The notes below the pieces were generated by a model. It made no database searches. It was not told where the DNA came from and saw nothing but the letters and a program-made list of their open reading frames with translations. A DNA stretch of 64,000 bases. It comes from Fibrobacteria bacterium GUT307. GTDB lineage: Bacteria; Fibrobacterota; Fibrobacteria; Fibrobacterales; Fibrobacteraceae. The DNA lies in assembly GCA_001462235.1 (NCBI GenBank), contig LIUI01000155.1, positions 1,766-65,765 of the forward strand. Reading direction: 5' to 3'. Positions 14,834-35,274 of the stretch are shown piece by piece. Within the stretch, counting starts at the first letter, position 1; every line of letters begins with the position of its first letter. The translations under genes were made by a program, and so were the position numbers.

Positions 14834-16144
14834 TCACCGAACAAAACACTCCGTTCGGCGGTAACCGGAACCTTCTGAACCTTTTGAATAGATGAAAATG
14901 CGCTTTTCGTTTATGCCAAAAAAGTTAGATAGGGTATAGAGAATATGGAAAGACCTCTGGTAAGCTATCTCGTATGCTGCTGCTGCGGAAACCAGTTTTT
15001 CCGAATAGCCAACGCAATGGAGTTGCGAATTGGGCTTTGCCTTAAGGGTATCTGCTATTTGAGAAATTAATGCTAAATGAACCGAATCGCTTGGGCTTGT
15101 GTGGGTTTCCGGGTAATTGAACACAAAATCTGCCTCTCTGTTCAGCAAAAAATCAGGAATCGGCCGTACTGGGAAAGTATCTCTTGGAGGTGGGCTGGGT
15201 GGTAGCGGCGGCGGAGGTAGCACTGCAACCGGATGTGGTGGAGTTTCTGGTTTTATTACAAGGCTATGGCTTGTGTCAATTATTTCTTTTACAGGCTCCT
15301 GCGGTTCCTGTTTGGTTATTTTTATTATATCTTCCTCCTCCTCCTCTTCTTCAGGATTTTTTTCCAGTTCATAAGAAAAAGATAATTTTATAACAGCTCC
15401 AACACTCCAAGGGCGCCAAGATTTCCAAGTGCTGTTCACCACTACGGCCGCACCATCCGAATTTTCTACCCTTTCTACAAGCGGTAAATCTCTGTCAAAA
15501 ACCTTGTTAAAGGAATAGTCTGCGAATACACCAGCGAGTAAGGCAAAATTATCGTTTAATTTCAGTTTTATTCCACCTTCTAAAGCAAGCATTACCGATG
15601 TTTTTTTGGAAGATATCTTAGTTTTATAAGAAGTGTCTCTTTGCATGCCAAAACCTTGAAAAAGCGGCTCGGTAAGGGTTAAGGCGTATTCCGGATAATA
15701 ACCCTCGGTTTTTAAACCTCTGTAATTTATGTTTGCGTTAGCTTTTTGAGTAATCCCTATTTTTAAACCTGCAGCGGTATAATACAAATCATTGCTGTAT
15801 TTTAGCAAAATGGGAATTTGCAAAATTTGTCCGTAAAGTTCTTCCTTATAACTGTCTATTTTATAATTAAAAATTAGAGAATCCCCTGAGTTATCAAGTA
15901 TAATTGGGTTGGTTCCGCTCTGTTCGTTTGTTTTTGTGCGCCACCGCCATGAATATTCAAGACCAAGGGAGAACCCAACATTTTTAATAGGGTAAAGTGA
16001 AACAGCAAAACCCGGAACGCTATTAAATGCAAGCTCAGAAGCACCAAAGCCATAATGCACATCAATTTCATAAGAAGGTTGGGCAAAAAGCAGAGCGGGA
16101 AAAATAGCAGTTAATATAAGAGTTGAAAATTTATTCTTCAACAA
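14834..16144 (-). CDS. Outer-membrane beta-barrel protein with poly-Glu/poly-Pro linker and OmpA-like C-terminal domain
   Basis: Signal peptide, alternating beta-strand N-terminal half, EEEEEEE and PPPPLPPSPPP linker, C-terminal OmpA-like segment. Confidence 0.55.
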   Translation of the reverse strand: MLKNKFSTLILTAIFPALLFAQPSYEIDVHYGFGASELAFNSVPGFAVSLYPIKNVGFSLGLEYSWRWRTKTNEQSGTNPIILDNSGDSLIFNYKIDSYKEELYGQILQIPILLKYSNDLYYTAAGLKIGITQKANANINYRGLKTEGYYPEYALTLTEPLFQGFGMQRDTSYKTKISSKKTSVMLALEGGIKLKLNDNFALLAGVFADYSFNKVFDRDLPLVERVENSDGAAVVVNSTWKSWRPWSVGAVIKLSFSYELEKNPEEEEEEEDIIKITKQEPQEPVKEIIDTSHSLVIKPETPPHPVAVLPPPPLPPSPPPRDTFPVRPIPDFLLNREADFVFNYPETHTSPSDSVHLALISQIADTLKAKPNSQLHCVGYSEKLVSAAAAYEIAYQRSFHILYTLSNFFGINEKRIFIYSKGSEGSGYRRTECFVR

Positions 16145-16853
16145 AGTAAACCCCCGCTGGAGTATTTTCGGATTTAGCTATTGCCGGAGCTATGCTTTTT
16201 GCATTGTATTCACAAGTAGAAACTCTCATACCATCTTTTGTGTGCATGGTGGCTGTGTAGGCAGCTTGGGAATCTAAAGTATCTTTGCTACTGGGGCCTG
16301 CGGAATAGAATTGCATTTCGCTTATTGCGATTTTATTTTTAAACCATTTGTAGTCTATAAATTCATAGCCTCCGTTTGTTTGCGGATTACTGTTTATGAA
16401 TAATACATTATTCCATTTTTGCCCTGCTACGGTATCAAATGGAACTGGGGTTTCTATGAGTAGGGTATGGTTTTCCGTATAAGTGAGGTCTGATGAGAGT
16501 AGGGTATAAGTGATGGTGTCTAGTCTGGGCTTGCCGGAATTAGCAATGGGCCATTCAAATTCGTAGAGAAAAAGACCGCCGTCTTCGTTAATCTTTATAG
16601 GAGAGGGACGATCTTTATTGCTCAAAGCCAAAACTATGCCTGCTTCACGTATTTTTATTTGGAAATTCAGTTTTTTTATGTTGCATTCTTCTACTACATA
16701 GTATTTTTGCAGTTTCTGTACATCGCTCAAAGCGGAGTCCATGTAAAATTTTGGTGTTCCTTCAATCTTGTGCCAAATACTTGTTTGGCTGCCCGCCTGC
16801 GCTCTTGCCATGGAAAGGGCGGCAAAAAACACTGCAATACATAGCTTTTGCAT
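16131..16853 (-). CDS. Hypothetical secreted protein
   Basis: 240-aa ORF with signal peptide (AVFFAALSMARA). No family recognised. Confidence 0.5.
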   Translation of the reverse strand: MQKLCIAVFFAALSMARAQAGSQTSIWHKIEGTPKFYMDSALSDVQKLQKYYVVEECNIKKLNFQIKIREAGIVLALSNKDRPSPIKINEDGGLFLYEFEWPIANSGKPRLDTITYTLLSSDLTYTENHTLLIETPVPFDTVAGQKWNNVLFINSNPQTNGGYEFIDYKWFKNKIAISEMQFYSAGPSSKDTLDSQAAYTATMHTKDGMRVSTCEYNAKSIAPAIAKSENTPAGVYFVEE

Positions 16854-16854
16854 A

Positions 16855-17388
16855 TCAAAGCCCCATCAATTTTTTTACCGTTTTTTCCACCAAATCCAAT
16901 GGAATATCACGAGTTTCGTCAAAGCTTACATCAACTGCATCTTGCCCGGGTTTTAGAGCTACATAAGCTTTGCCTTGTATTTTGAATTTTTTTACGCTGG
17001 GCAATGCCAAAATCTTAAAAAGGTCTAGCTGAACCGCACCGGAAAAACTTATCTGGCTATTGCCAGACGATATCCATTTTGATTGTTGCAGGCTAAATGG
17101 GACTTCAAATAGGGAATCTAAATGAATTAAACCGTTTAAATCTTGAACAAATAAGGAATCTTTGCCTGCGTTGTATGAGTTTAGAATTATGCTGAATTTG
17201 AGCGAATCTCCGGTAAAGCCATCTATCTGGGCTTTTTGGAATGTAAATTTGCATTTTTTTAGAATATTTGCGGCTTGTATTTTTTTTGAGGTGGAACAGG
17301 AGAAAATTAGGAATGCAAGCCCTAGGCAAATTACTACCTTTGCCAATATGCTTGAATTTTTAACAAAAAGAGTTCCAGAGTTACGCAT
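16855..17388 (-). CDS. Hypothetical lipoprotein (possibly LEA14-like fold)
   Basis: Internal Met at 17388 gives a lipoprotein signal (LAFLIFSC). The longer 281-aa version upstream looks non-coding. Confidence 0.45.
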   Translation of the reverse strand: MRNSGTLFVKNSSILAKVVICLGLAFLIFSCSTSKKIQAANILKKCKFTFQKAQIDGFTGDSLKFSIILNSYNAGKDSLFVQDLNGLIHLDSLFEVPFSLQQSKWISSGNSQISFSGAVQLDLFKILALPSVKKFKIQGKAYVALKPGQDAVDVSFDETRDIPLDLVEKTVKKLMGL

Positions 17389-17950
17389 ACGGGTTGAATT
17401 TACAAACTTTGCAGCGGTTATATTGCTTTTTGCAGGGCTTGCAGTGGCGGCTATAAACGTAAGCACCGCCGAGAATGCAGAAATAGCCGCTTTTATTGAA
17501 AACGAGAGCAAAAAAATTTTGCAAGTCCCGGATTCTCTTGTTTTGAATTTGAATTTTCTCACAGCAAAAAACGAGCATAGCCGTGCTGGGATCTTATTTT
17601 TTATAGGCGAGCGGGAAGTTTCAATCAAGGCAGAATACACTATGGATTTGCCGGTAGGGCAGTTCAAGGGAACTTTACGAGCAGATACATCTTGGTTCAC
17701 CGGCTATTGCGGAATGGTTGAGTGCCTTGCCAAGCCTATGCCTGCGGAGCAGAGGATAGATACTCTAAAAGCACTTGTTTTAAGGATTTTGGCAGAATTG
17801 AATAGCAAAATGCGTGGTTTAAGCGTAAACTCCGCTGCCGCTGTTCCTGCTGTTGATACCACAACTGCCGATACCACTACTGTTCCTGCTAATGTTACTG
17901 CAGATAGTGATAGCGTTCCTGCGGTGGAAGAAGTTTCGCAAGGGGATTAA
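17348..17950 (+). CDS. Hypothetical membrane-anchored protein with Thr/Ala/Val-rich tail
   Basis: ATG at 17348, TM segment FAAVILLFAGLAVAAINV. Overlaps the divergent lipoprotein start by about 40 nt, so the start, or the gene itself, is uncertain. Confidence 0.35.
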   Translation: MLEFLTKRVPELRIRVEFTNFAAVILLFAGLAVAAINVSTAENAEIAAFIENESKKILQVPDSLVLNLNFLTAKNEHSRAGILFFIGEREVSIKAEYTMDLPVGQFKGTLRADTSWFTGYCGMVECLAKPMPAEQRIDTLKALVLRILAELNSKMRGLSVNSAAAVPAVDTTTADTTTVPANVTADSDSVPAVEEVSQGD

Positions 17951-18451: not shown

Positions 18452-18961
18452 TTAATATCTCAGCCTTTTTGCAAATAAATATCTAGAATAAAAAAAAGGC
18501 TCGTCTAAGGATGAGTATTTTACCCCTTGCGAACTGGTGGCATTTGCAAATTTATTTTCTCCCATGTATATTCCAACATGGCTTACAGAATCGTTCTCCG
18601 TTTCTCCAAAAAACACCAAATCGCCCGGCAAAAGAGCATACTTTGGAACTTCAATTCCCAATTTGCTCTGCCAAACAGAATACCTTGGCAAATCAATCCC
18701 ATATATTTCATATACTTTCTTGACAAAACCCGAACAATCTATGCCATTTTCGTCGTCACCACCCAAAAGATACGGAATGCCTAAAAATGTCTCGATATGC
18801 TCTTCAAGTTCTATAGGATACCTAAAATCACTCGCTATATTTTTCCATTCGTGCTTTCCTTGAAAATAATATTCTCTCTTATTTCCACTTCCCTTTGCCG
18901 CACAAGAAAGCAGTATACAGGAAAAGGATAAAAAAACACTAATAAAGAAAATTTTCACCAC
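18452..18961 (-). CDS. NlpC/P60 (C40) peptidase lipoprotein
   Basis: Lipobox (ILLSC), catalytic GIDCSGFV, and the downstream VSHVGIY and N.. motifs. Confidence 0.8.
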   Translation of the reverse strand: MVKIFFISVFLSFSCILLSCAAKGSGNKREYYFQGKHEWKNIASDFRYPIELEEHIETFLGIPYLLGGDDENGIDCSGFVKKVYEIYGIDLPRYSVWQSKLGIEVPKYALLPGDLVFFGETENDSVSHVGIYMGENKFANATSSQGVKYSSLDEPFFYSRYLFAKRLRY

Positions 18962-18981: not shown

Positions 18982-19028
18982 AATTTACTATATTTACACC
19001 GATATGTGTTTAGATTTAACTGAGGAAG
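18982..19028 (+). promoter_or_regulatory. Promoter plus conserved leader of the first T6SS-linked transcription unit
   Basis: AATTTACTATATTTACA...TGTGTTTAGATTTAACTGAGGAAG. Homologous to 22053-22100. Confidence 0.55.
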
Positions 19029-19534
19029 CTCCACGGCAGGGAGTGGGAGTATTATTCGGAATATTATTTGCTGTTTGGGGATTTTTTTCGCCATATTTGT
19101 ACGCAAATGAGCTTTATGGGCAAGCTTCACTTAGAGCATTGCAGGGCGTTGAAGTTTTTGTGCATTTATCCGGTGACCCAGAAATTAAAAAAATGGAAAA
19201 TGAAATAAAAAGCAGGTTAAAAACAAGACTTGAATATGTTAAAGTGCCTATAATCCCCTACAACAAGCTAAACGATATAGGTGATAAAATATCAAATAGC
19301 GGGGCGCTTAAATTTTTTATGACCGGTTTTAAACAAAAAGATGGCGACTATGTTATTTATGCAACTTTGCAATTACACCAAAGGGCATATTTGGCTATAA
19401 GCCACGAATATATGGATTGCCAAACTTGGGATAGATGGAAAATGGGTGTTTTTAAAGATGTTCAATTCTATTTAGAAGTAGAAGACATGATAAGGGATTT
19501 CGCAAATGATTTTATTGCAGCAACTGGATTTTAA
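19004..19534 (+). CDS. Hypothetical secreted protein, first gene of the T6SS-linked unit
   Basis: ORF with signal-like segment (VLFGILFAVWGFFSPYLYA). The true start may be GTG at 19043, 15 nt after GAGGAAG. Confidence 0.45.
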   Translation: MCLDLTEEAPRQGVGVLFGILFAVWGFFSPYLYANELYGQASLRALQGVEVFVHLSGDPEIKKMENEIKSRLKTRLEYVKVPIIPYNKLNDIGDKISNSGALKFFMTGFKQKDGDYVIYATLQLHQRAYLAISHEYMDCQTWDRWKMGVFKDVQFYLEVEDMIRDFANDFIAATGF

Positions 19535-19982
19535 GTTAGCAACCAAGCTCCTGATATTCCTGATAGTCGGGATTCAGGCCGCTTTTGCTATTCAGATAGA
19601 GGCGCCTAAAGAAATTGAGGAGCATGTTTTGGCATACTCAAACGAAGCAGGAGCAGAAAATATGAATGCTACTTTAAGGGTTAGCATCATAAAAAAAATA
19701 AATTGCAAGGCTTTTGCTATGAAACTTATAGATAAAAGCAAAGGAAAAACCCTCAAAGAAACAGAGCGTTGCTTTACCGAATTTCCGAATTCCGCTTTGC
19801 AAAACGGAATTTTTGAACTTTTTGGGCACAAGGTAAATACAGAAACCGAATTGAGCGAATATACAAAAACGGTTTTATTCGGAATAGGCTTTGCGGCGAC
19901 GGGGGCTTTGCTCTATTATTCAAAGCAGCCAAAGCCGGTTTACGGGTACAGCAAAAATAAAATTTCAGAGGTTGCCGAATGA
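19506..19982 (+). CDS. Hypothetical membrane protein, T6SS-linked
   Basis: N-terminal signal/TM and C-terminal TM (VLFGIGFAATGALLYY). Overlaps tssK start (ATGA). Confidence 0.45.
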   Translation: MILLQQLDFKLATKLLIFLIVGIQAAFAIQIEAPKEIEEHVLAYSNEAGAENMNATLRVSIIKKINCKAFAMKLIDKSKGKTLKETERCFTEFPNSALQNGIFELFGHKVNTETELSEYTKTVLFGIGFAATGALLYYSKQPKPVYGYSKNKISEVAE

Positions 19983-21211
19983 CCATGTTAGTTGCTTGGA
20001 AAGAGGGGATGGCTTTGTCGCAGCAACACCTGCAACAATCGGATAAATTTATCCTTGGGCATATAAAAAATGTTTCTGGTTTGCCAAAAGGAATGCATTT
20101 TGGTTTTAGCAAGTTGATATTTGAAGAAGACTTGATAAAAGACGGACAATTTGCGCTTAAAGAATGTGAAGCTGTTTTTCCAAGCGGAATTTCTTTTATT
20201 GATTACGAAAGTAAATCAGTAAAAATAGAAGCTAGAAATTTTACCCAAATTTTTGACAAGAGCTTGAATAGCCTTAATGTGTATTTGGCTTTGGATTTGA
20301 ATAAGCCAATTGAATTTTCCGAAGAGCACACTTCTCGTTTCAAGGTTGTGTGGGAAAATTGCTGGGATTTGTATTCTACAGAAAATTCAGTGCTTATACC
20401 AGTTTCCATTCCGGTTCCTTCTGTTGTTTTTGACGGGGAGTCTTTAGACGGAAAGGAATTTTTGCCGATTGCAAGGCTTTTGAGAAATTTGCAAGGCTCT
20501 TTTGAGCTAGATAAAAATTTTTATCCGCCTTTAATATCCTTGAACGGTTACGAATATTTTTCGCAAAAATTAAAATATTTTGATGCGCTTTTGCAAGGCA
20601 GAATAGCAAACATTTCTTATTCAAAAGAATTATTGCTTAAAGATTTAAAAACCTTAAGAGTGGCTTTGGGTTGTATGCAAGGCACGGATGGAGTATTGCC
20701 TTTCTTGCTTTTTTGTGAAATAGCGAAATGTTTGCAAGAGCCGTTTAATTATAATCATGCAGAATTTGACAAATGTTTCGGTAAAATCTTCACTGCATTA
20801 AACGATTTTTTATTATCCGAGAAAAAAGTTGCATTTTTGCAAAAACGCTTGCAAAAAGAAGGGCCAAGTTCATTTTTTGCAAATCTGGCAGATTTGGATA
20901 TTTCAAATGCCACTTCTGTTTGGCTTGCGGTGGAATCTAAATTATCACCGGAAGAAGCTATTAAATTTATTCCTATGCAACTTAAAATTGCTCCTAAGTC
21001 AAAATTATCCGGCATAGTTGTTAGTGCAACGCATGGCATAAACTGCATTCACAGCATTGTTCCAAAAACCATTCAAGAGATGCCCGGAACATTTTATTTT
21101 AAGCTGCAAACGGATTCTTCTCTTTGGAAAAGTTTATGCGAAGAAAGAGAACTCGGCATTTACGCACCAATAACATTGCGGGTGGATTCCATAGATATCA
21201 TAAAGGTGTAG
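19979..21211 (+). CDS. tssK: Type VI secretion baseplate protein TssK
   Basis: N-terminal WKEGMALSQQHLQQSD matches the TssK signature W.EG..L.PQHFQQ.D. Length 410 aa. Confidence 0.8.
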   Translation: MTMLVAWKEGMALSQQHLQQSDKFILGHIKNVSGLPKGMHFGFSKLIFEEDLIKDGQFALKECEAVFPSGISFIDYESKSVKIEARNFTQIFDKSLNSLNVYLALDLNKPIEFSEEHTSRFKVVWENCWDLYSTENSVLIPVSIPVPSVVFDGESLDGKEFLPIARLLRNLQGSFELDKNFYPPLISLNGYEYFSQKLKYFDALLQGRIANISYSKELLLKDLKTLRVALGCMQGTDGVLPFLLFCEIAKCLQEPFNYNHAEFDKCFGKIFTALNDFLLSEKKVAFLQKRLQKEGPSSFFANLADLDISNATSVWLAVESKLSPEEAIKFIPMQLKIAPKSKLSGIVVSATHGINCIHSIVPKTIQEMPGTFYFKLQTDSSLWKSLCEERELGIYAPITLRVDSIDIIKV

Positions 21212-21213
21212 GG

Positions 21214-21951
21214 TTAATCCTTTATGCAACGGACGGAAAGTAAATTAGTTTTTTTACCATTGTTATCATTTCTTATAGCATCGTAATCATGTAATATTCG
21301 CTTGTAATGAGCCTCACCACTTGACTCCGTAGCACTCCACCAATAACCTATGTCACCTATATCATCTAAAAAGTTACCTCCAGGCAATGCCGAAAAACCG
21401 TAATCGTTTGTACCCGTGTTAGTAGTCCAAAGATCATCATTTGCTTTTAATGCTTTTCCTGCTATTTCTGTACCGCCAACGGTTGTTATTAATGCTTCCC
21501 AGTCGGTATCATCTGGCAACTTCCAACCAATGGTAGAACAAGCAGCAGTTGCGTCTATCCAATTATACAATCTTCCGTAAATATCGCAGTTACTTTCTAT
21601 GTCACCATAACATTTACTACTTGCAGTCGCTATATTCAAGTTCTTTGCCATCCAAATTTGGTTACCTATTGTCACCCCAACAATACCATCATCACATGCC
21701 ATATATTTGGGGTCATAAGCTACTGTTCCGCATAATGCTTTAGGCCATCTGGCTTTTTCAATGTTTCCGCATTTAATTACAAATTCGGTACCATCTTCAT
21801 AAGCATCGCAACTTTGCCCATCTTTTCCATTTGTGCCTGGAGAGCCAGCTGCTTTTACACCTGTATCTACATTGTCAATAAGCCAATTGCCGTTACTGCC
21901 AATGGTTACAACGCTGCCAGATACACCCGGCAGACCTGGCTCACCAGGCAA
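21214..21951 (-). pseudogene. 5'-truncated gene fragment: collagen-like Gly-X-Y stretch plus FISUMP domain
   Basis: Frame opens right after a TAA with no ATG/GTG and no signal peptide. It begins mid collagen repeat (QPGLPGEPGLPGVSGS). The C-terminus carries YGRLYNW, GW.LP, GFSALPGG, YWWS and SVRCIKD FISUMP motifs. Confidence 0.6.
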
Positions 21952-22052
21952 GCCTGGCTGACTAGCGGAACCACTCGCTAATATAGAAAATTATTTTGCC
22001 GTGAGCCACCAGCACAAGGTTGAAAGGTGAATAGAAAAATTCTTCGATTTTT

Positions 22053-22100
22053 AATTTACTATATTACAATCTTGTGTGTGATTAGACTTAACTGTGGAGG
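22053..22100 (+). promoter_or_regulatory. Promoter plus conserved leader of the tssL-tssB-tssC unit
   Basis: AATTTACTATATTACA...TGTGTGATTAGACTTAACTGTGGAGG. The start codon lies 14 nt after GGAGG. Confidence 0.55.
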
Positions 22101-22114
22101 TATGAGGCAGTTTT

Positions 22115-23947
22115 ATGAGAAAATCTTTTATTGAGCTTTCTGAAAACATTTTTTGTTCCGTGCTTTTACTGCCGTGCGATAAAGAAATTTCGGCAGAAGA
22201 AACCAAAGGCGATTTTATAGAAAAAATAAAGGAATTTTGCAATGATTCCACAAATAACGGTTACACTGCAGGTGAAATAGAAAACGCTAAATATGCTTTG
22301 TGTGCATGGATAGACGAATATATTTACACAAATTCCGCTATATCTTCACAATGGTTTTCGCATTCCCTTGCTTTGAGCGAATTTGAAGATGCCGAAGCCG
22401 GAATACATTTTTTTGAAAGAATTGAAAATTTTCATAAAAATAAAAACTCAACTCCTTTGCTTGAATTGTATGTAAAATGCATTCTGTTTGGCTTTATGGG
22501 CAAGTTCAGAATAGGAAGCACGGCAGAGTTAAAACAAATTTTAAATTCTGCAATTTCTAAAACAAGTATGTTTTTAGATAAAATAAATTATAAACCCATA
22601 ACAAAAAACAAACACCTATTTTCATTTAGGCGAGGCATAAAAAATATCCTAATAACAGGATTTTACGAAGATAAATGTAAAAGTTCAGCAAAAACACAGG
22701 AACCACCAAAAGGGTACAAATATATATATTCCGATATGAAAAATATAGAAGAATTACCCTTTATTGACGGTATTATTTCAATAAATCCTTTATTTGAAGA
22801 AAAAGACCAAACCGAATCTTTAGAAAAGCTTTTCTCAAAGCAAAAATGCAAAATACCGCTTTATGCCGTGGCAGATTTGGAAATTCAGGAATTTGACCAG
22901 ACGTTGGATAAAAATTACGAATTTAACAGCAATCATTTGAATTACTATTTGCACAAATATTTCTTGGACGAAATTGCCTGCAAAAAGATTCTCTCCTTGC
23001 CTAGAAAATTGAAACAATTTAAAGAGACAGAAGCTTTTTATTCGTTGCCATTTTTTCCATTCATGAAAAATGAAAAACCACTTGCGTACAGCTTAGCTAA
23101 GAGAGTATTTTTTATTTTGCTTTTGGTTGCGCTTGTATTGGCTATTTTATTTTTTGTATTCTCTATTATTAATCAGCATAAAGAAGAAATCAAATCTGAG
23201 GCAATGCTTATATTGCAAAAAAGCAAACTTGATAGCATAAAAGCAGCAGAAGATAGCATGAGAGCAGCCGAAGACAGTGTTAAAGCCATGCGAGATAGCA
23301 TTAAAGCCGCGGAAGATAGCCTGAATCTTGAATTTGAAAAAAATCTTAAAAACTTAGAACTTAAATATCAAAAGCAAATTTTAGAGAAATTCCCTTTTAA
23401 GGAGGGTAAAATCCCGTCTGTAGGCGAAGTTAGCGATTATTTTGGCAAGGAGAGCGATTTTTACAAATTCCTTGACATGATAGACACAATTTCCGATGAT
23501 AGGATAAAATTCAACAAAAAAACTTTAGCTACGCTTTCGCTTCTAAAAAATAACACTTGGAGCGGCATTCCTATTAGTATAACTATTCAGGCTCCAAAAA
23601 TGGCATCCGTGACATTTGGGTTAGATAGTCAATATGTGGAAATTGAGCGTGGAAAAAGCAAAACAATAGAAATAGTTTTCCCGCAGAAAAGCAAAGGTGG
23701 CATTGAGATTGTAGCAAAAACAGCGAACAATATTTTTAGTGAAAATATCCGTGGCGAATGGAGTTTGCTTAAAATCCAAGATAGGCATGTATTTTCCTTC
23801 ATAGATAAAAGCTATTCGATTGATGTAGAATTAAACATTCGTTGGTATTTGCCAAAGGATGCTATAAAACCAAATGACTGGTTTAAACTCCGCATGGAGC
23901 CAAATTTAATAGAGAATTCCCGTTTAACCAATAACCTAGGAGAGTAG
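22115..23947 (+). CDS. tssL: TssL/DotU-like T6SS membrane protein with long extension (possible TssM-like periplasmic region)
   Basis: DotU motifs (YALCAWIDEYI, GIHFFERIE, LELYVKCILFGFMGKFR). Single TM at about residue 335 (FFILLLVALVLAILFFVF). AAEDS[MV][KR]A repeats. C-terminal FPF...EVSDYFG...F.KFL segment. Confidence 0.7.
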   Translation: MRKSFIELSENIFCSVLLLPCDKEISAEETKGDFIEKIKEFCNDSTNNGYTAGEIENAKYALCAWIDEYIYTNSAISSQWFSHSLALSEFEDAEAGIHFFERIENFHKNKNSTPLLELYVKCILFGFMGKFRIGSTAELKQILNSAISKTSMFLDKINYKPITKNKHLFSFRRGIKNILITGFYEDKCKSSAKTQEPPKGYKYIYSDMKNIEELPFIDGIISINPLFEEKDQTESLEKLFSKQKCKIPLYAVADLEIQEFDQTLDKNYEFNSNHLNYYLHKYFLDEIACKKILSLPRKLKQFKETEAFYSLPFFPFMKNEKPLAYSLAKRVFFILLLVALVLAILFFVFSIINQHKEEIKSEAMLILQKSKLDSIKAAEDSMRAAEDSVKAMRDSIKAAEDSLNLEFEKNLKNLELKYQKQILEKFPFKEGKIPSVGEVSDYFGKESDFYKFLDMIDTISDDRIKFNKKTLATLSLLKNNTWSGIPISITIQAPKMASVTFGLDSQYVEIERGKSKTIEIVFPQKSKGGIEIVAKTANNIFSENIRGEWSLLKIQDRHVFSFIDKSYSIDVELNIRWYLPKDAIKPNDWFKLRMEPNLIENSRLTNNLGE

Positions 23948-23948
23948 A

Positions 23949-24446
23949 ATGGCGAACAGTTATCAAAACGAGATCCCGCCCGCACGAATAAATATCCAAT
24001 TAAACGTGGATACGGGCGGAGCACAGAAAAAAATGGAACTTCCACTGAAGTTGCTGGTACTTGGCGATTTTAAAATGGATGGCGATGAGTCCAGACTTAT
24101 GGAACGGGAAAAGATAAACATAAATAAGGATAATTTTGATGGGGTTATGCAGTCTATGAATATAGAATTGAAAACTTCCGTTGAAAATCGCCTCAAAAAA
24201 GACGATTCAGAAATGCCCATAGAATTAAAATTCGACAGCATGAAATCCTTTGAGCCTATGGAGATAGTGAAACAAGTTCCCGATTTGAATCGCTTAATGG
24301 CTGTTCGCAATTTGATAAAAGATTTGGGTTCAAATTTACTGGACAATAGAGAATTCAGAAAAAAAATGGAAGCTATTTTGAAAGACAAAAATTCCATGAA
24401 TTCTGTTTTAACCGAACTCAAAGCAATACCGAGTGATAAGGAGTAG
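23949..24446 (+). CDS. tssB: T6SS contractile sheath small subunit TssB
   Basis: EIPPARINIQLNV...KKMELPLKLLVLGDF matches the TssB/VipA N-terminal signature. Confidence 0.9.
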   Translation: MANSYQNEIPPARINIQLNVDTGGAQKKMELPLKLLVLGDFKMDGDESRLMEREKININKDNFDGVMQSMNIELKTSVENRLKKDDSEMPIELKFDSMKSFEPMEIVKQVPDLNRLMAVRNLIKDLGSNLLDNREFRKKMEAILKDKNSMNSVLTELKAIPSDKE

Positions 24447-24454
24447 GAGGATAT

Positions 24455-25936
24455 ATGGAAGACACTCAGCTTTCTTCAATTTATAAGAGTGTAAATTTGG
24501 ATTTGCCGTCTAAGTTTATAGACCTTTCAGAGTTTAGCGACGAAACATCGCTTTCCAAGTATAGCCCTAGCGAGCGAATAAGTTCGGGTCTTAAGGCGTT
24601 TGTGCAGAGTGTTTTAGACAGTTCTGCAAGCGTAGAAAAAATAGACCGTGCCTTTATAGATTCGCTTGTGGCGTGGATAGATAAAATAGTGAGCGAACAA
24701 CTGGATGCAATTATGCACAGCACAGAATTTCAGAAATTGGAATCTTCTTGGCGTGCTTTGCATTTTTTGGTTCAACGCACCAATTTTAGAAAAAATGTAA
24801 AGATAGAATTGATAAATGCAGACAAAGAATCTATAAAATATGATTTTGAAGATTCGCCAGAAATCATTCAAAGCGGCCTTTACCGTCATATTTACAGCGA
24901 TGAGTACGATACTCCGGGTGGCGAGCCTTATGCTGCGATGATAGCAAATTATGAATTTGATAACTCCGCAGACGATATTGACCTTTTGCAAAACATATCT
25001 TGTGTTTCTGCCGCTTCGCATTGCTTGTTTGTTTCTTCCGTAGGGTCTAAATTTTTTGGAAAATCGGATATTGGCGATTTGCCAAAAATAGATGATTTAG
25101 AAAACTTTATGGAAAAAGCAGAATACACAAAATGGCGTGGATTCCGCAAAACAGACGATTCTCGCTATATAGGCCTAACTTTGCCTAGATTTTTGTTGAG
25201 GAATCCTTATGGCGAGGGCAAGAGTGCCAGGGGTTTTAAATATACGGAGTCTGTTCTGGGCGGAGAGCACGAAAAATATTTGTGGGGAAACTCGGCATTT
25301 GCTTTTGCCGCAAATATGGTTCGTTCTTTCCAAGATAATGGTTGGTGCGTTCAAATCAGAGGCCCGGAGAGTGGTGGCAAAGTTGAAGATTTGCCAATAC
25401 ATCTCTTTAACTCTGGCAAAGGAGCGCAAACAAAAATCCCAACGGAAATTTTGATTCCTGAAACCCGTGAATTTGAATTTGCAAAGCAGGGCTTTATTCC
25501 GCTGAGTTTTTACAAAAACCGCAATTATGCTTGTTTTTTCTCGGCGAATTCCACTCAAAGGCCAGAAGAATACGATGATGCACAGGCTACCGCAAACTCA
25601 AGGGTGAATTCTCGTTTGCCTTATATATTCCTTACCGCAAGGCTTGCGCATTACCTAAAAGTTTTGCAGAGAGAGAATATTGGAGCAAGCAAGAGCGCGG
25701 GCATTTTGGAAGCGGAACTTAACAACTGGATAAAAGGGCTTGTGACGGAAATGGAAAATCCAGGTCCAGAGCTTGCAGCAACTCATCCTTTGAGTTATGG
25801 GCAAGTGACGGTTGCCGAGAATCCAGATAATCCCGGATTTTTCAAGGTTGCTCTTTCCGTTGTTCCACATTTCCAGGTAGAAGGCGTGAATGTGAATTTG
25901 TCATTGGTGTCTAAGATGCCAGCGGCAAAGCAGTAG
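24455..25936 (+). CDS. tssC: T6SS contractile sheath large subunit TssC
   Basis: F.KLESSWRALHFLV, LYRHIYSDEYDTPGGEPYAAMIANYEF and SAASHCLFVSS match conserved TssC/VipB blocks. Confidence 0.9.
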   Translation: MEDTQLSSIYKSVNLDLPSKFIDLSEFSDETSLSKYSPSERISSGLKAFVQSVLDSSASVEKIDRAFIDSLVAWIDKIVSEQLDAIMHSTEFQKLESSWRALHFLVQRTNFRKNVKIELINADKESIKYDFEDSPEIIQSGLYRHIYSDEYDTPGGEPYAAMIANYEFDNSADDIDLLQNISCVSAASHCLFVSSVGSKFFGKSDIGDLPKIDDLENFMEKAEYTKWRGFRKTDDSRYIGLTLPRFLLRNPYGEGKSARGFKYTESVLGGEHEKYLWGNSAFAFAANMVRSFQDNGWCVQIRGPESGGKVEDLPIHLFNSGKGAQTKIPTEILIPETREFEFAKQGFIPLSFYKNRNYACFFSANSTQRPEEYDDAQATANSRVNSRLPYIFLTARLAHYLKVLQRENIGASKSAGILEAELNNWIKGLVTEMENPGPELAATHPLSYGQVTVAENPDNPGFFKVALSVVPHFQVEGVNVNLSLVSKMPAAKQ

Positions 25937-25937: not shown

Positions 25938-27236
25938 TTACACTATAGCCGCAATTTCCTTCATTGCGGCTTCCGTGTCTTCGTATTTTGAACTCTCGCC
26001 TATGCCTTGAATCAAAAATTTATCCAATGCGGCGTGCCTTTTAATAGAAACATCTATTTCTGGGTCTGAACCTTTTGCGTATGCACCTATGTTTATCAAA
26101 TCCTCGTTTTTGCGATAAGTTGCAAGGCTTCGCAAAAGGGTTGCAGATAGTTCTTTTAGTTGCGGGTTTGCTATATCTGTGCGGCAACGGCTTATGCTTG
26201 CCAAAACATCTACGGCAGGGTAGTGGTTTTTGTTTGCAAGCGCACGAGAAAGCACTATATGCCCGTCTAAAATGGAACGGACAGCGTCTGCTATAGGGTC
26301 TTCCAAATCATCGCCGTCCACCAGAACAGTGTAAAGCCCTGTAATGCTTCCTTTGTCGCTATTGCCAGACCGCTCAAATAACTTTGGCAAAAAGGCAAAA
26401 ACAGATGGGGTGTAACCCTTTGTTGCGGGTGGCTCGCCAACTGCCAAACCTATTTCTCTTTGCGCCATTGCAAGGCGTGTGCTTGAATCCATCAAAAAAA
26501 ATACATCATCGCCGGAGTCCCTGAAAAACTCCGCTATGCTCATAGCTAAAAAACTCGCCTTTAAGCGGACAAGGGCGGGTTGGTCGCTGGTTGCAACTAT
26601 TACCACGGAACGCTTTAATCCTTCCGGGCCTAAATCTTTTTCTATGAATTCCCTCACTTCCCTGCCACGTTCTCCGATTAAAGCAATTACATTTACTTTT
26701 GCAAGGCAGTTCCTCGCTATCATGCCCATGGTAACGCTTTTGCCAACTCCGGAACCGGCAAAAATCCCCATTCTTTGCCCGCGCCCAATGGTTAAAAAAC
26801 CATCTATGGCCCTAATCCCTGTGTACATGGGTTCTTTTATGCGTGCTCTTTGCATGGCGGTTGGGGGGCTTGAATAAATGGAGCGGCGAGCTTCGTATTT
26901 AATTTCCCCTAGGTTGTCCATTGGGTTTCCCATGCCGTCTAAAACCCTGCCCAAAAGTTGGTAACCAACGGGTGCGGTTAGCGTTTCCCCTTTTGCCACA
27001 ACAGACATTCCGGGCCTTATGCCTTCTAACACGCCAAGCGGCATGATAAGGGTTCTGGTTTCTCTAAAACCTACTACTTCTGCATGGCATACGGTTTTTC
27101 CATTTTGCTCAATAACGCAAAGTTCGCCAATGCCGGCGTTTGGCCCCTCGCATTCAATAACCAAGCCTATTATTTTCACAATGCGCCCACGCACATCTGC
27201 AAGGCGAATGCGGGAGATTTTTTCCAGCTTATTCAT
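25938..27236 (-). CDS. fliI: FliI/YscN family type III secretion ATPase
   Basis: Walker A GSGVGKS, ALIGERGREV, Walker B FFLMDSSTR and TVLVDGDD motifs. Confidence 0.9.
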   Translation of the reverse strand: MNKLEKISRIRLADVRGRIVKIIGLVIECEGPNAGIGELCVIEQNGKTVCHAEVVGFRETRTLIMPLGVLEGIRPGMSVVAKGETLTAPVGYQLLGRVLDGMGNPMDNLGEIKYEARRSIYSSPPTAMQRARIKEPMYTGIRAIDGFLTIGRGQRMGIFAGSGVGKSVTMGMIARNCLAKVNVIALIGERGREVREFIEKDLGPEGLKRSVVIVATSDQPALVRLKASFLAMSIAEFFRDSGDDVFFLMDSSTRLAMAQREIGLAVGEPPATKGYTPSVFAFLPKLFERSGNSDKGSITGLYTVLVDGDDLEDPIADAVRSILDGHIVLSRALANKNHYPAVDVLASISRCRTDIANPQLKELSATLLRSLATYRKNEDLINIGAYAKGSDPEIDVSIKRHAALDKFLIQGIGESSKYEDTEAAMKEIAAIV

Positions 27237-30633: not shown

Positions 30634-31515
30634 ATGAACGCATTTATGAGAAAAATACTATGCATCTCGTTTCTCTTTGCTATTGCCGCTTATGGGCAGC
30701 AGGAACGCATAGCAATAATGAACACTGTTGACAACAAAGATTCCATAGCTTTTTTGGATTTGAGCTATTTAACGGACAAGCTCCGCGACATAGCAGGCAA
30801 GATTCTGCCTCAAAGCCGCTATGGCATAATGACCCAGCAGAGCATAGTTGACCGCTTAGGCTCTCAAGAACGGGCTATAAAGGAATGCAAGGAGGCAACC
30901 TGCTTGGCAGATTTGGGCAGGAAAATCAGTGCAGATTACATAGCTCAGGGGCATGTTGGGCGTTTTTCTGGTGAATTGACTATAAAGGTAGAGCTTTACA
31001 ATGTAGGTAGCAGCAACTTGATTGGCTCGTTCACTGGGGATTCCAAAGATTTGAAGGGTTTGCTTTCTGTTTTGGAGGCTAAGGCTCCTAAGCTTTTTGA
31101 AGATATGATTTCTACAACTAAGGAAAAAGAAAAGCCTGCACCGCCACCTCCTGCTCCGGAAAGTGCCTGGGATTTAGTGGGGAGGGCGAGCGATTTAGAG
31201 GATGCTGTTGATGTTGAGCTTGGCTACAAGTTGCCGGCGAGGGTTGACTCTCAGGTGAATACGGAAGAATACCGGCCTTCCAATAACTCTTTTTGGATTG
31301 CTCTTGCATTGGATGTAGCAGGTGCCGCATTTGTGGGTTATGGCATATACAAGAATAGTGAAGTGCTTAACAAGCATGAAGAATACGGTGATTTACGTTC
31401 CGGTTTTGGCAATTCTTGGGAAAAAGTGGAGGATGCCAAAACATCAAGGAATGTTTCTTATATTTTGGGCGGCGTGCTTTTGGCATCGGGAATAGGAGTG
31501 CATATATGGTTTTAG
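30634..31515 (+). CDS. Hypothetical secreted/membrane protein
   Basis: Signal peptide, Pro-rich linker (KPAPPPPAPE), two C-terminal TM segments. Overlaps the start of the DGR target gene. Confidence 0.5.
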   Translation: MNAFMRKILCISFLFAIAAYGQQERIAIMNTVDNKDSIAFLDLSYLTDKLRDIAGKILPQSRYGIMTQQSIVDRLGSQERAIKECKEATCLADLGRKISADYIAQGHVGRFSGELTIKVELYNVGSSNLIGSFTGDSKDLKGLLSVLEAKAPKLFEDMISTTKEKEKPAPPPPAPESAWDLVGRASDLEDAVDVELGYKLPARVDSQVNTEEYRPSNNSFWIALALDVAGAAFVGYGIYKNSEVLNKHEEYGDLRSGFGNSWEKVEDAKTSRNVSYILGGVLLASGIGVHIWF

Positions 31516-32363
31516 TTATGATTATAGCATTCCTGTTTTTGGGGTGCGCAGAAGTTGAGCGAGACAATCCTTATGATCCGGATGGGATTAATTACAACCC
31601 CAGCCTTGTTGCAATTTCCAGCTCCTCTGTCCGCAGCTCAAGTTCATCCATTCCACCGCCAAGCTCCAGCTCCTTTGCTCCAAGTTCAAGTTCGTCAAGT
31701 GTTGCTCCGAGCAGTAGTTCAATTAGTTCGTCTTCGTTGTCTAGTTCGTCTGCACCGCCACCAAGCTCTAGCTCCTTAGCCAACGTTGTTTATGGTACTC
31801 CCGTAGATTATGGTGGCGAAACTTATCCAACGGTTATTATAGGCACTCAAACTTGGTTTGCTAAGAATTTGAATTACGATCCCGGCACAGGCAATTCTGG
31901 TTGCTATGATTGTGCGACTTATGGCCGTTTATACGATTGGGCAACGGCAATGGATCTTCCATCAAGTTGCAACTCAAGTAGTTGCTCAAGCTCAATACAG
32001 TCAAAGCATCGTGGTATTTGCCCTTCTGGTTGGCATATACCGAACAATAATGATTGGGATGCGTTGATGACAGCTGTTGGCGGTAGTGGTACAGCAGGCA
32101 AGCATTTGAAGGCTAAAGAAGGCTGGAATCCCTACAGCGGCATAGAGAACTTGGACACCTACGGATTTTCTGCTCTGCCGGGCGGCAACGGCTACTCGGA
32201 TGGCAGTTTCGGCAATGTTGGCTACGACGGCTACTGGTGGAGTGCCAGCGAGGTCAATAGCAACTACGCCTACGGCAGGGGCATGAACTACTACTACGAC
32301 TACGCGAGCTACAACTACAACGATAAGTTCGGCTTGTACTCTGTTCGTTGTTTGCAGGACTAA
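31506..32363 (+). CDS. FISUMP-domain lipoprotein, DGR variable target protein
   Basis: Lipobox (FLFLGC), Ser-rich linker, FISUMP motifs (YGRLYDW, GWHIP, GFSALPGG, YWWS, SVRCLQD). The last 65 codons are the VR. Confidence 0.85.
   Translation: MVLVMIIAFLFLGCAEVERDNPYDPDGINYNPSLVAISSSSVRSSSSSIPPPSSSSFAPSSSSSSVAPSSSSISSSSLSSSSAPPPSSSSLANVVYGTPVDYGGETYPTVIIGTQTWFAKNLNYDPGTGNSGCYDCATYGRLYDWATAMDLPSSCNSSSCSSSIQSKHRGICPSGWHIPNNNDWDALMTAVGGSGTAGKHLKAKEGWNPYSGIENLDTYGFSALPGGNGYSDGSFGNVGYDGYWWSASEVNSNYAYGRGMNYYYDYASYNYNDKFGLYSVRCLQD
32167..32361 (+). repeat. DGR variable repeat (VR)
   Basis: Matches TR 195-389 over 195 nt. All 23 differences are at TR adenines (16 of 21 AAC codons plus one AAT). The 3' 28 nt are identical to the TR. 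Confidence 0.93.
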
Positions 32364-32474: not shown

Positions 32475-33339
32475 TTAGCTTAGACTATGCGTCCCGGTTA
32501 GGCGGAAATGTTTTTTTTTGGCTTTATCCATGGCAATCTTCTGTTTCACATCAGCTAAAGACATGCCGCTTTCCCAAAGAGAAAATACTTTCTCAACGCC
32601 AATCTCAATGCCTTCTTCCTTCTCAACCTCAAGGGCTGTTTCAAGATTCCATTCTTCGTCAAACATATTCAATACCTCCGAGCCGTGCTTTTCAAGAAAA
32701 TATACTAAAATACCACGCTCAATGCAAGTTTTTATGGCTGCCGCTATGGCTGCGTCTTTATCCATAGTTTCCATGTTCTTCTTAACCTCTGCTATCAACT
32801 CACTGTAACCGCTTAGATTGGGACTCCTTTGAATCATGCTCGCATTGCGGCCTTTGTTGATGTTGTAAGCCTTAACTACCAACTCAAGATTGGGAACGCC
32901 TTGACCAAGCTCAAAAAAATCGGACAATCTCATTTCCGTGAAATCGGCCATCTCTTTTTCGCCATTGTATAATGGCTATAAATTCCGGGGATGGTATTTT
33001 AATTTTATGCTCCTTGTACAAATCTCTGCGATTTGTGAGCCTTTCGTATTCGCGAGCTATGTATATAAGCATTCTGAGCGGCATATTTTCGTTTATTGAC
33101 GACTGGTGCTCTATCAATACCACCAGTTTATCCTCAATCACAAAAGAGATGTCGTTCAGTTGTTCCATGTAGAGGGCGTCAGAAAGAGTCACAATTTTGA
33201 TTTTTGTACTTTCTGGGTAGTTTTTACCGCTAATAGCGTTGTATAGCTCCAGAGCTTTTTCGGGTGTTCCGAAGAGCTTTGTGAAGACGCTGTTTTTGTA
33301 TTGGCGGTTGGTCGCGGCTTTGCCTGCATTTTCTTCCAT
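32475..33339 (-). pseudogene. Frameshifted Rpn/YhgA-like PD-(D/E)XK nuclease (putative transposase) gene
   Basis: ORFs 32911-33339 and 32475-32951 are two halves of one gene. A third frame reads ..PEFIA-LYNGEKEMADFTEMRLSDFF across about 32952-32976. YKNSVF and LIEHQSSINENMPLRML motifs. Confidence 0.7.
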
Positions 33340-33442: not shown

Positions 33443-33739
33443 TTTTTTGCAATTTTTTAAAATCCCCTAAATCCCAAAAATCGGGGGCATCGAGGTTCTG
33501 ACATTTTTTTTACACTTTTTTTACATTTTTTTTTGACTTTCTCTCAAAAAAAAATATATATTTATGTGTATAATGTTGTATAACACCCCAAATACAGCGA
33601 AAGGAGCTTGCAGTGCAGGCAAAGCCTTGCACCCTTGACCCAAGCGTTGGCAATGTCATCATAATATATATATACGCATTCAAATTTCTTCCATATTTAA
33701 GCCCAAAAAAGCCCAAAAATTTACAAGAATTTTACAATT

Positions 33740-33781
33740 CTCAAAAAATTAGTTGCAAAACTCAAAAAATTATTTGCAAAA
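33740..33781 (+). repeat. 21-bp tandem direct repeat (2 copies) upstream of the OMP paralog pair
   Basis: CTCAAAAAATTAGTTGCAAAA / CTCAAAAAATTATTTGCAAAA, ending 33 nt before the ATG at 33814. Confidence 0.8.
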
Positions 33782-33813
33782 ATTTCCCCTCAAACAACAA
33801 TAGGAGGTATTTT

Positions 33814-34446
33814 ATGAACAAAGTGAAGTTCATATTTTTGGCGGTAAGCCTTGCGTTTACCATGGCATTAGCTCAACCCACTGTATCAATAAACGGCTCT
33901 GCCGGCTATTATAGAGCTGTGGTGGATGGTCTGGATGATTATCCATTTACCGGACCGGGGTTCGAAGCGGGTTTTTCTGGCTTAATTCCTATAGCGGATA
34001 TTGCCCAATTTGGAGCCGGGGCAAGTATAGGCTATTACTCAGTATCTGCAGATGAAAACGGTATAGAATATACTATTTCCAGTCTTTATTTGGGTTTAAA
34101 TCCAAAACTTAGATTGGGGCTGGAAAAAACATATGTTGATATAGCTTTGCCTATACAAATACCTCTTTCGAATAAAATAACAGTGAAAGTTCCAGGATAC
34201 GGAAGTACGAGTGAGGATGTGGAGGATGTGGAAACCAGTTTTGCTGTTTCATTATTTGGGCGATACAATTTTATTGGCATAGGTATAGGCAAGATTTTAA
34301 CTGGTAGCAGTGGAGCAACAATATTAGCAGCCTCCGTACTCATACCTATATCTGAGCAATTCGAAATAGGACCTTCTATAAGTTATGCCATGGGAAAAGA
34401 TGAAACCGATTTAAACGTATCCTTTGGGGTTGAGTACACATTTTAG
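33814..34446 (+). CDS. Small outer-membrane beta-barrel protein (paralog 1)
   Basis: AGGAGG RBS, signal peptide, alternating strands, C-terminal ..GVEYTF. Confidence 0.6.
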   Translation: MNKVKFIFLAVSLAFTMALAQPTVSINGSAGYYRAVVDGLDDYPFTGPGFEAGFSGLIPIADIAQFGAGASIGYYSVSADENGIEYTISSLYLGLNPKLRLGLEKTYVDIALPIQIPLSNKITVKVPGYGSTSEDVEDVETSFAVSLFGRYNFIGIGIGKILTGSSGATILAASVLIPISEQFEIGPSISYAMGKDETDLNVSFGVEYTF

Positions 34447-34459
34447 GTAGGAGGTTATT

Positions 34460-35161: not shown

Positions 35162-35171
35162 GATTTGGCGC

Positions 35172-35200
35172 GATTTTGCAACAGTTGTTGACGTTTTTTT
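35172..35200 (+). repeat. Conserved intergenic box (copy 3, opposite orientation relative to its promoter)
   Basis: GATTTTGCAACAGTTGTTGACGTTTTTTT, about 40 nt upstream of the -35 at 35241. Confidence 0.7.
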
Positions 35201-35240
35201 ATGTGTCTGCCCGGATTCGTGAATTTTTTTCATTTTTTTT

Positions 35241-35268
35241 GAACTTTTTTCCCGAAATTTCCGTCTAA
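35241..35268 (+). promoter_or_regulatory. ECF-type promoter (GAAC-N17-CGTCTAA) upstream of 35275 gene
   Basis: GAAC (35241-35244), 17 nt, CGTCTAA (35262-35268), 6 nt before the GTG. Confidence 0.55.
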
Positions 35269-35274
35269 TGATAT

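Follow-up and report, generated by a model that had tools for sequence, protein, structure and literature searches.

Part of a type VI secretion system (T6SS) is encoded between positions 19,004 and 25,936 of a 64-kb stretch of DNA from Fibrobacteria bacterium GUT307, the whole of which is called the window here. The module comprises two genes for small exported proteins (orfA and orfB), tssK, a gene for a 610-residue protein with an N-terminal DotU/TssL domain, tssB, and tssC (Table 1). TssK matches PF05936 (2e-51) and, over its full length, the TIGR03353 equivalog (203 bits, cutoff 100), and its match in the PDB is the TssK structure 5y0e (5e-16). The DotU domain of the 610-residue protein matches PF09850 (1e-25) and TIGR03349 (98 bits, cutoff 90). 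TssB scores 166 bits with the TIGR03358 equivalog (cutoff 97), and TssC matches PF05943 (2e-122), PF18945 (4e-39), and the TIGR03355 equivalog (633 bits, cutoff 271). The open reading frame (ORF) coordinates and the TssK, DotU, TssB, and TssC signatures reported in a first-pass annotation of the sequence are upheld by these matches, including the TssK and TssL assignments, for which a check with hidden Markov models (HMMs) had been proposed. The top matches of TssC in the PDB are sheaths of T6SS subtype i (T6SSi), namely 5mxn (1e-134), 5urw, and 5n8n. These VipB/TssC proteins of Vibrio, Myxococcus, and Pseudomonas are well ahead of Francisella IglB (6e-82). Judging from the matches of TssB, TssC, and TssK, the locus is of the T6SSi type.

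The genes are tightly packed. orfA and orfB share 29 nt where the one ends and the other begins, the stop of orfB overlaps the start of tssK by 4 nt, and tssB starts 1 nt past the stop of the gene for the 610-residue protein, so that there is no tssA between the two. The stops of tssC and of the convergent gene for a FliI/YscN-family ATPase are 1 nt apart, as the first-pass annotation noted in describing an abrupt end of the locus. That this end is a feature of the system is not supported, since fliI lies next to tssC in none of the 12 other loci of the lineage described below. The annotation overlooked an antisense gene with a Fib_succ_major domain between tssK and the DotU gene, and a weak IcmF_C match in the DotU protein.

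The contents of the window were examined with Pfam on about 60 non-nested ORFs of at least 120 residues (short nested ORFs on the opposite strand and a frame-overlapping ORF at 17162-17950 on the plus strand were set aside), and with our own phylum-specific HMMs for Hcp, TssA, TssE, TssF, TssG, TssL, TssM, and ClpV. These HMMs were built from canonical Fibrobacterota clusters and run over all six-frame ORFs of at least 40 residues. Neither approach detected hcp, tssA, tssE, tssF, tssG, clpV, or a canonical tssM in the window, and Pfam on the non-nested ORFs detected no vgrG or PAAR gene. The absences listed in the first-pass annotation are therefore confirmed, that of vgrG by Pfam only. The module is flanked by housekeeping genes. 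A scan for sigma-70 promoters and terminators gave counts no higher than those in shuffled sequence.

Table 1. Features of the T6SS module and of its surroundings in the window
Feature	Position	Strand	Description
orfA	19004-19534	+	176 aa; type I signal peptide without lipobox; exported protein ~135 aa
orfB	19506-19982	+	158 aa, exported; candidate lineage-specific accessory of the membrane anchor
tssK	19979-21211	+	410 aa; connector of baseplate and membrane complex; PF05936, TIGR03353
TssL-TssM fusion gene	22115-23947	+	610 aa; N-terminal DotU/TssL domain
Fusion residues 1-150	22115-22564	+	Predicted TssL/DotU cytoplasmic helical domain
Fusion residues 176-320	22640-23074	+	Conserved alpha/beta domain, presumed cytoplasmic; origin not assigned
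Fusion residues 322-356	23078-23182	+	Predicted single transmembrane helix
Fusion, coiled coil and TssM C-terminal domain	23243-23914	+	Predicted periplasmic; own TssM HMM, hhalign, Foldseek
Fusion, elements of the predicted structure			1-150 helical bundle; 176-320 alpha/beta domain; 325-354 transmembrane helix; 377-422 46-residue helix; 436-478 small helical subdomain; 485-577 beta-sandwich
tssB	23949-24446	+	Small sheath subunit; PF05591 (9e-50), TIGR03358
tssC	24455-25936	+	Large sheath subunit, T6SSi-type; PF05943, PF18945, TIGR03355
Fib_succ_major-domain gene	21214-21951	-	PF09603 (3e-25); antisense, between tssK and fusion gene
NlpC/P60 peptidoglycan hydrolase gene	18452-18961	-	PF00877 (2e-26); divergent from orfA
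FliI/YscN-family ATPase gene	25938-27236	-	TIGR01026, 601 bits (cutoff 379.5); boundary, outside the T6SS module
Diversity-generating retroelement	195-1489 and 31416-32363		Comprises the three parts listed next
Template repeat	~195-335
Reverse transcriptase ORF	311-1489		RVT_1 (2e-16)
Variable repeat	32167-32307		3' end of a Fib_succ_major-domain gene
Transposase-family ORF	32911-33339		Short; PD-(D/E)XK / YhgA-like, weak matches only
Three ORFs	33613-36339		No Pfam match
FlgJ-like gene	36388-37119		Rod-binding and SLT domains
FlgN gene	37116-37649

The protein encoded between tssK and tssB

The C-terminal part of the 610-residue protein is related to TssM. Positions 2-150 of our TssL HMM fit residues 4-149 (4e-36), and positions 1062-1199 of the 1205 in our TssM HMM, which are its last ~140, fit residues 480-600 (3e-11). 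Both matches are found in all 11 orthologues examined. Pfam IcmF_C also matches residues 493-559, weakly and under the gathering score (4e-4). When an alignment of 45 sequences of the protein was compared with five Fibrobacterota TssM sequences by hhalign, the probability was 98.5% (E 3.7e-15); the alignment extends over residues 249-600 and TssM 678-1136, with per-column confidence only at about 411-600 against 900-1136. The DotU part matches PDB sequences 6y4r (8e-19), 4v3i, and 3u66. By contrast with the TIGR03349 match, the model for the short form of TssL gave only 40 against a cutoff of 180.

A structure predicted by AlphaFold2 (AF2) from the 45-sequence alignment has a mean predicted local distance difference test score (pLDDT) of 79.6, and its elements are listed in Table 1. 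Foldseek against the PDB returned two groups of structures for this model. One is the TssL group, consisting of 6y4r (target-normalised TM-score 0.82), 3u66, 4v3i, and Francisella DotU 4ack. The other is the TssM C-terminal domain from enteroaggregative Escherichia coli (EAEC; 4y7l, 4y7m, and 4y7o; E 1e-5, ~240 columns), together with the membrane core complexes 6ixh and 6hs7. Hydropathy indicates one transmembrane helix in 11 of 11 orthologues, while canonical Fibrobacterota TssL and TssM have one and three, respectively. The locus encodes no separate TssL, a feature of T6SSi, the DotU domain being joined to further domains. Of a canonical TssM (~1100 residues with three transmembrane helices, a cytoplasmic nucleoside triphosphatase (NTPase) domain, and periplasmic domains), only the C-terminal domain is detectable. 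The HMMs, hhalign, AF2, and Foldseek are concordant in showing that the TssL-like protein is a fusion of the cytoplasmic domain of TssL with the C-terminal periplasmic domain of TssM.

The predicted topology of the fusion is coherent, because the one transmembrane helix divides the DotU and alpha/beta domains, which would be cytoplasmic, from the coiled coil and the TssM C-terminal domain, which would be periplasmic. Compared with TssM, the fusion is missing the two N-terminal transmembrane helices, a recognisable NTPase domain, and ~500 residues of the periplasmic domain.

The alpha/beta domain at residues 176-320 is modeled with a pLDDT of ~80-90 and has many invariant residues across the 45 sequences. 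It is located in the slot of the TssM NTPase, supposing that the transmembrane helix of TssL and the first two of TssM were deleted, and it carries a 'PxY..ADL' motif suggestive of a link to that NTPase. Speculatively, the domain may be a shrunken remnant of the cytoplasmic NTPase domain of TssM. We do not claim such an origin, since hhalign against the cytoplasmic region of TssM gave a probability of 5% and Foldseek gave only weak flavodoxin-like matches (E 0.05-0.1).

Distribution in Fibromonadales and other Fibrobacteria

When one genome per species was scanned for the TssC pattern, 15 loci of Fibrobacterota were obtained. Twelve are in metagenome-assembled genomes (MAGs) from termite guts named 'Candidatus Fibrimonadales', 'Fibrimonadaceae', or 'Fibrimonas', with TssC 86-91% identical to that of the window, and the other three are in other Fibrobacteria (64-68%). 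The 'Candidatus Fibrimonadales' MAGs correspond to the Fibromonadales described previously (PMC4704652). Synteny judged by tblastn places orfB-tssK-fusion-tssB-tssC in every termite MAG that covers the region, and the flanks of the module vary (L002-L005, L007, L009, L010, and L012). orfB is directly upstream of tssK in all nine Fibromonadales loci covering that position, while orfA precedes the module in six of nine copies and is absent from L002, L003, and L005. The tssK and fusion genes are adjacent in L002, L004, L007, L009, L010, and L012, and the Fib_succ_major insertion between them is found in the window only. On a 6.7-kb contig (L008, JAITFT010000002.1), tssB-tssC is separated even from the fusion gene; a Fib_succ_major gene precedes it, and the contig has neither the fusion gene nor tssK.

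A protein search with the fusion gave 47 clusters, all at least 51% identical to it. The full-length ones have 526-641 residues, and two are shorter fragments of 470 and 429 residues. All named clusters are from Fibromonadales-type sources and are annotated merely as 'DotU family'. The window protein is 100% identical to one cluster representative (P0310) and 51-84% identical to the other 46 by BLASTP; in a MAFFT alignment of 44 representatives the identities are 52-86%. The length is conserved, ~100 positions are invariant across 45 sequences, and every TssL-type match from Fibromonadales is of the fused form. The homologues found fit a proposed family of ~530-640 residues consisting of a DotU domain, a ~145-residue alpha/beta domain, a single transmembrane helix, a coiled coil, and a TssM C-terminal domain, encoded between tssK and tssB.

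The ratios of nonsynonymous to synonymous divergence (dN/dS) were calculated pairwise between the window genes and the orthologues in termite MAGs, at dS > 1, where synonymous divergence is saturated. They are 0.03-0.05 for tssC, below 0.1 for tssB (dN 0.05-0.15), ~0.1 for tssK and for the fusion gene, 0.15-0.2 for orfA, and 0.3-0.4 for orfB. All six genes are under purifying selection. The recurrence of the module together with the low ratios means that it is neither an assembly artefact nor a pseudogene graveyard.

At the level of genomes, the T6SS is not new to the phylum. The first-pass annotation knew of no characterised T6SS there; however, other Fibrobacteria have a single canonical cluster in the order tssK-tssL-tssM-tssA-tssB-tssC-hcp-tssE-tssF-tssG (L011, L014, L017, L022, and L023), and the genome paper of Chitinispirillum alkaliphilum mentions a T6SS (PMC4814513). 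The canonical proteins have ~200-277 residues (TssL) and 1136-1204 residues (TssM). In Fibromonadales, tssA is gone from its place and no T6SS-related gene follows tssC. The single canonical cluster is the ancestral state, and the reduced state in Fibromonadales is derived. Conservation against these sister lineages is uneven: identities are 64-68% for TssC, 60-62% for TssB, and 75% for Hcp, whereas those of TssK and the DotU part are 23-29%, as expected if the interface between anchor and baseplate was remodeled. TssK alone is 51-79% identical among the termite MAGs and 23-25% identical to TssK of canonical Fibrobacteria. No homologue of orfB was found in the canonical Fibrobacterota clusters.

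Split loci also occur outside the termite lineage. A non-termite Fibrobacteria MAG (L013, JADFYW010000008.1) has tssA-B-C-hcp-tssE, with no tssK, tssL, tssM, tssF, or tssG within 21 kb. Stand-alone tssE-tssF-tssG modules, sometimes with clpV, are found in other Fibrobacterota from peat and other environments (L018-L020 and L024-L032), embedded among housekeeping genes, for instance thyA and pyrBC. These modules show that splitting is common in the phylum.

A profile search with Fibrobacterota Hcp gave an 87-member cluster, the NCBI members of which are labeled 'Hcp [Fibromonadales bacterium]' or '[Fibromonadaceae bacterium]'. On six of six contigs, hcp is a single gene between Fib_succ_major and glycosyltransferase genes, amid housekeeping genes. 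The contigs are of the same lineage as the window, because their flanks are syntenic with it in two blocks, FtsX-M23-GreA-PEGA-DprA-ABC-MiaA (58-91% amino acid identity) and ManC-TPR (79-86%). The ORF at 52370-52807, which lies at the syntenic miaA junction of the window, was considered as a diverged hcp and rejected, as no similarity was found. With our HMMs, no TssE, TssF, or TssG was found in the window or in the ~10-kb flanks of 12 related loci. TssF of Fibromonadales was not found in a protein search, on 8 contigs, among 20 named clusters, or in a profile-driven metagenome scan, all matches belonging to other Fibrobacterota or environments.

Upstream and neighboring genes

The two genes upstream of tssK occupy the position usual for TssJ-type lipoproteins, as the first-pass annotation pointed out. 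Both products have a type I signal peptide and no match to any Pfam or NCBIfam family, in line with its description of them as unrecognised exported or membrane proteins, whereas the TssJ-type character that the position hinted at does not hold. Both lack a lipobox cysteine, and neither matches a PDB sequence, TssJ chains included. The AF2 model of OrfA (pLDDT 84.5) has a beta-alpha-beta3-alpha fold with weak likeness in Foldseek to LptE, TolB-N, and PelC and none to TssJ. OrfA is rejected as TssJ on sequence, on the missing lipobox, and on this fold, which is of the alpha/beta type and not a transthyretin-like sandwich. OrfB, which was searched by sequence only and without a match, is rejected on sequence and lipobox absence. 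No TssJ outer-membrane lipoprotein, a feature of T6SSi, was found at the locus.

OrfB has a ~85-residue periplasmic domain with two conserved Cys residues. Its C-terminal segment is glycine-rich and hydrophobic, and its tail has the conserved sequence YYSxxPKPVYG. Its co-inheritance with the module makes it the strongest candidate for a lineage-specific protein partner of the fused anchor. The link of orfA with the T6SS is uncertain, because the gene is absent from three copies of the module and a distant homologue lies beside an NlpC/P60 gene; a role as a core T6SS gene is doubtful. Homologues of OrfA number 14 representatives among 1.84 billion proteins. The distant one (39% identical) is on unrelated 1.1-kb contigs (L039 and L040), divergent beside an NlpC/P60-like gene and not beside T6SS genes, and the NlpC/P60 gene upstream of orfA is also found in L007, L009, and L012 (65% identity). 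This arrangement suggests that the divergent NlpC/P60-orfA pair is a small conserved cell-envelope gene pair independent of the T6SS. orfA may belong to a cell-wall gene pair merely neighboring the module, despite its 29-nt overlap with orfB. Residues 75-156, in the C-terminal half of OrfA, also match, weakly and repeatedly (5-9 stretches, E 1e-10 to 3e-5), giant surface proteins with He_PIG/Big_9 immunoglobulin-like repeats (P0365, P0367, P0368, and P0370), although OrfA itself folds as alpha/beta; these matches are possibly spurious.

The product of the Fib_succ_major gene that separates tssK from the fusion gene has no predicted signal peptide or transmembrane helix. The gene is specific to the window and is not part of the machine. 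Genes of this family are located at many independent boundaries of T6SS fragments (3652-5445 in L004, 1750-2331 in L008, 8106-8651 in L009, and L033-L038, besides the gene in the window). One or another of them interrupts the tssK-fusion pair, precedes orfA or tssB, follows tssC, or lies next to the orphan hcp (in two contexts). The examined Fibromonadales DNA contains 19 such ORFs in 317 kb, one of which is a retroelement reverse transcriptase ORF matched via its template repeat. A single conserved T6SS-linked orthologue is rejected, the genes being different paralogues with 30-53% identity. They could mark rearrangement hot spots or T6SS-linked cargo.

The reverse transcriptase ORF just mentioned belongs to a diversity-generating retroelement near the start of the window. 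The variable repeat is at the 3' end of a Fib_succ_major-domain gene ~31 kb away; it matches the template repeat over 134 nt with 88.8% identity, and all mismatches are at template adenines in AAC codons. The short transposase-family ORF is just downstream of this target gene. The gene for the FliI-like ATPase is solitary, with no other flagellar export genes alongside. The FlgJ-like and FlgN genes, the former preceded by three ORFs, are 9 kb from it, and Fibromonadaceae have been predicted to be flagellated (PMC4704652). Minus-strand genes at 14834-17700 (an OmpA-like protein and two unknowns) were considered as T6SS accessories and rejected, as they have no synteny in any relative and no family matches.

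Interpretation and comparison with known systems

The first-pass annotation left the choice between a system split across the genome and a reduced or divergent one. Both descriptions are supported: the orphan hcp elsewhere in the order speaks for a split, and the joining of TssL to the TssM C-terminal domain is the divergent part. We consider it probable that the locus belongs to a split T6SSi of termite-gut Fibromonadales/Fibromonadaceae, whose membrane anchor is miniaturised into one fused polypeptide. An ancestral single cluster would have been broken up in the lineage while the membrane complex was miniaturised. The fusion would oligomerise in the inner membrane, its DotU domain docking TssK and the baseplate in a TssL-like manner, and its coiled coil and TssM C-terminal domain extending to the outer membrane; OrfB may help it in a TssJ-type or bridging role. 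TssB and TssC would polymerise around an Hcp tube, contract, and fire effectors. We expect TssE, TssF, TssG, VgrG, and probably ClpV to be encoded elsewhere in the genome. The puzzle of a partial locus is largely explained, because the genes are scattered. A stronger version is a tentative proposal, for which we see a little less than an even chance: the entire envelope-spanning anchor of the Fibromonadaceae T6SS would be the ~600-residue fusion with one transmembrane helix, perhaps aided by OrfB, with neither TssJ nor the NTPase and large periplasmic domains of TssM, and with tssA missing from the locus, the other core genes being scattered singly or in mini-modules. No smaller T6SS membrane complex would then be known.

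Several observations count against the split system with a fused anchor. hcp is missing from both syntenic junctions in the window, and it is unproven for this particular genome; the orphan hcp elsewhere together with its absence here indicates that the system is scattered in the order and that the position of hcp is variable. No TssE, TssF, TssG, VgrG, ClpV, TssA, or PAAR protein attributable to Fibromonadales was found, a weak negative given by word-seeded searches of cluster representatives only. TssE, TssF, TssG, VgrG, and ClpV may be too divergent for word-based searches, since TssK shares only ~23% identity with the corresponding Fibrobacteria proteins. The ~255 periplasmic residues of the fusion may be too few to cross the periplasm unaided, the operon of this genome is interrupted by the antisense Fib_succ_major gene, and the evidence base is MAG and metagenome sequence alone.

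The same negative searches would fit a truly reduced machine, in which TssA, TssE, TssF, TssG, and/or ClpV are lost, only Hcp is kept, and the sheath is run from TssK, the fusion, and OrfB, OrfA, or others as a new minimal architecture. The contrast between the TssK/TssL part (23-29%) and the sheath and tube (61-75%) in identity to sister lineages fits a remodeled baseplate and anchor interface, and orfB is strictly inherited with the module. However, the searches are insensitive, the phylum commonly has tssEFG as a split-off module, and sheath polymerisation requires a TssEFG-VgrG baseplate according to established T6SS biology. Moreover, TssK is full-length and strongly constrained, and as the known bridge from TssFG to TssL/M it argues that TssFG exist. 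We therefore regard such a reduction as unlikely. Slightly less likely again is that the locus partly duplicates, or is auxiliary to, a complete canonical T6SS elsewhere in the genome. Complete clusters are known in other Fibrobacteria, and several T6SS loci per genome are common in bacteria; nevertheless, the TssC-pattern scan gave exactly one TssC locus per Fibromonadales MAG, always of this module type, hcp in the order is an orphan outside any cluster in all six contexts, and the Fibromonadales TssL-type matches are all fused.

The large internal deletion of tssM, the loss of tssA from its position, the dispersal of genes, and the antisense gene inside the module of the window might also be read as decay, the T6SS being under loss in a host-associated lineage and its leftover genes non-functional. 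This reading is improbable, since at least 9-12 divergent genomes have all six ORFs intact, with dN/dS of 0.03-0.4 at saturated synonymous divergence, TssC is 86-91% identical across the order, and the fusion is conserved in length and in ~100 invariant positions. Least probable of all, and hardly to be entertained, is a chimeric contig joining T6SS fragments to unrelated DNA in assembly or binning. The metagenome-type source and the 1-nt distance between the tssC and fliI stops would suit it, but independent assemblies of more than 12 MAGs, which come from different termite hosts and projects, have the same gene order, and an identical 610-residue protein is on a 78-kb contig in NCBI and JGI.

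TssJ, TssL, and TssM are regarded as core parts of T6SSi, and, to our knowledge, every membrane complex solved so far has as its structural backbone a ~1100-residue TssM with three transmembrane helices and a large periplasmic domain. A fused mini-anchor was not to be expected, and it can be tested. It has not been described before in the literature found: our search gave no paper describing a T6SS in termite-gut Fibrobacterota or a fusion of TssL with the TssM C-terminal domain, and the Fibromonadales paper (PMC4704652) does not mention secretion systems. Maintained by purifying selection throughout an order of termite symbionts that are uncultured and degrade fibre, the fusion amounts to a natural deletion experiment on the minimal anchor and is a compact target for structural work. 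Cluster-based T6SS detectors that need co-localised core genes and a TssM match will overlook the system in this clade or call it incompletely. The locus raises the possibility that Fibrobacterota associated with wood fibre in termite guts engage in contact-dependent antagonism.

The T6SSiii of Bacteroidota is without TssJ, TssL, and TssM and uses TssN-R. Bacteroidota belong to the same FCB (Fibrobacteres-Chlorobi-Bacteroidetes) superphylum, and there the proteobacterial-type membrane complex is replaced; in the window, by contrast, the sheath is T6SSi-like and domains derived from TssL and TssM are kept, not replaced. The window locus resembles the canonical TssJ-TssL-TssM complex of T6SSi (EAEC Sci-1; 4y7l/4y7o, 6hs7, and 6ixh; PMC6517824) in its DotU/TssL cytoplasmic and TssM C-terminal domains and in the adjoining T6SSi-type TssK, TssB, and TssC. 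The canonical complex has a TssL with one transmembrane helix and a ~1130-1200-residue TssM with three, whereas the window encodes one ~600-residue polypeptide with a single predicted helix, an extra alpha/beta domain, and neither a recognisable NTPase nor most of the periplasmic domain, and no TssJ was found at the locus. With the canonical Fibrobacterota clusters it shares the phylum and the relative order around tssK...tssB-tssC; those clusters differ in having a separate tssL, a full tssM, tssA between tssM and tssB, and hcp-tssE-tssF-tssG downstream, without orfA or orfB. The T6SSi of Acinetobacter with a non-canonical complex (PMC10564176) is likewise reported to function in the absence of TssJ, with periplasmic accessory proteins specific to its lineage, though its TssL and TssM are separate and full-length. 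Functionally, this complex and the T6SSiii of Bacteroidota are the nearest precedents. Split T6SS loci with orphan hcp/vgrG islands, as well as the tssEFG modules of Fibrobacterota (L018, L024, and L032), similarly have core genes distributed over several sites, but the lineage of the window is more fragmented, with hcp as a single-gene orphan and, in L008, tssBC apart from the fusion gene.

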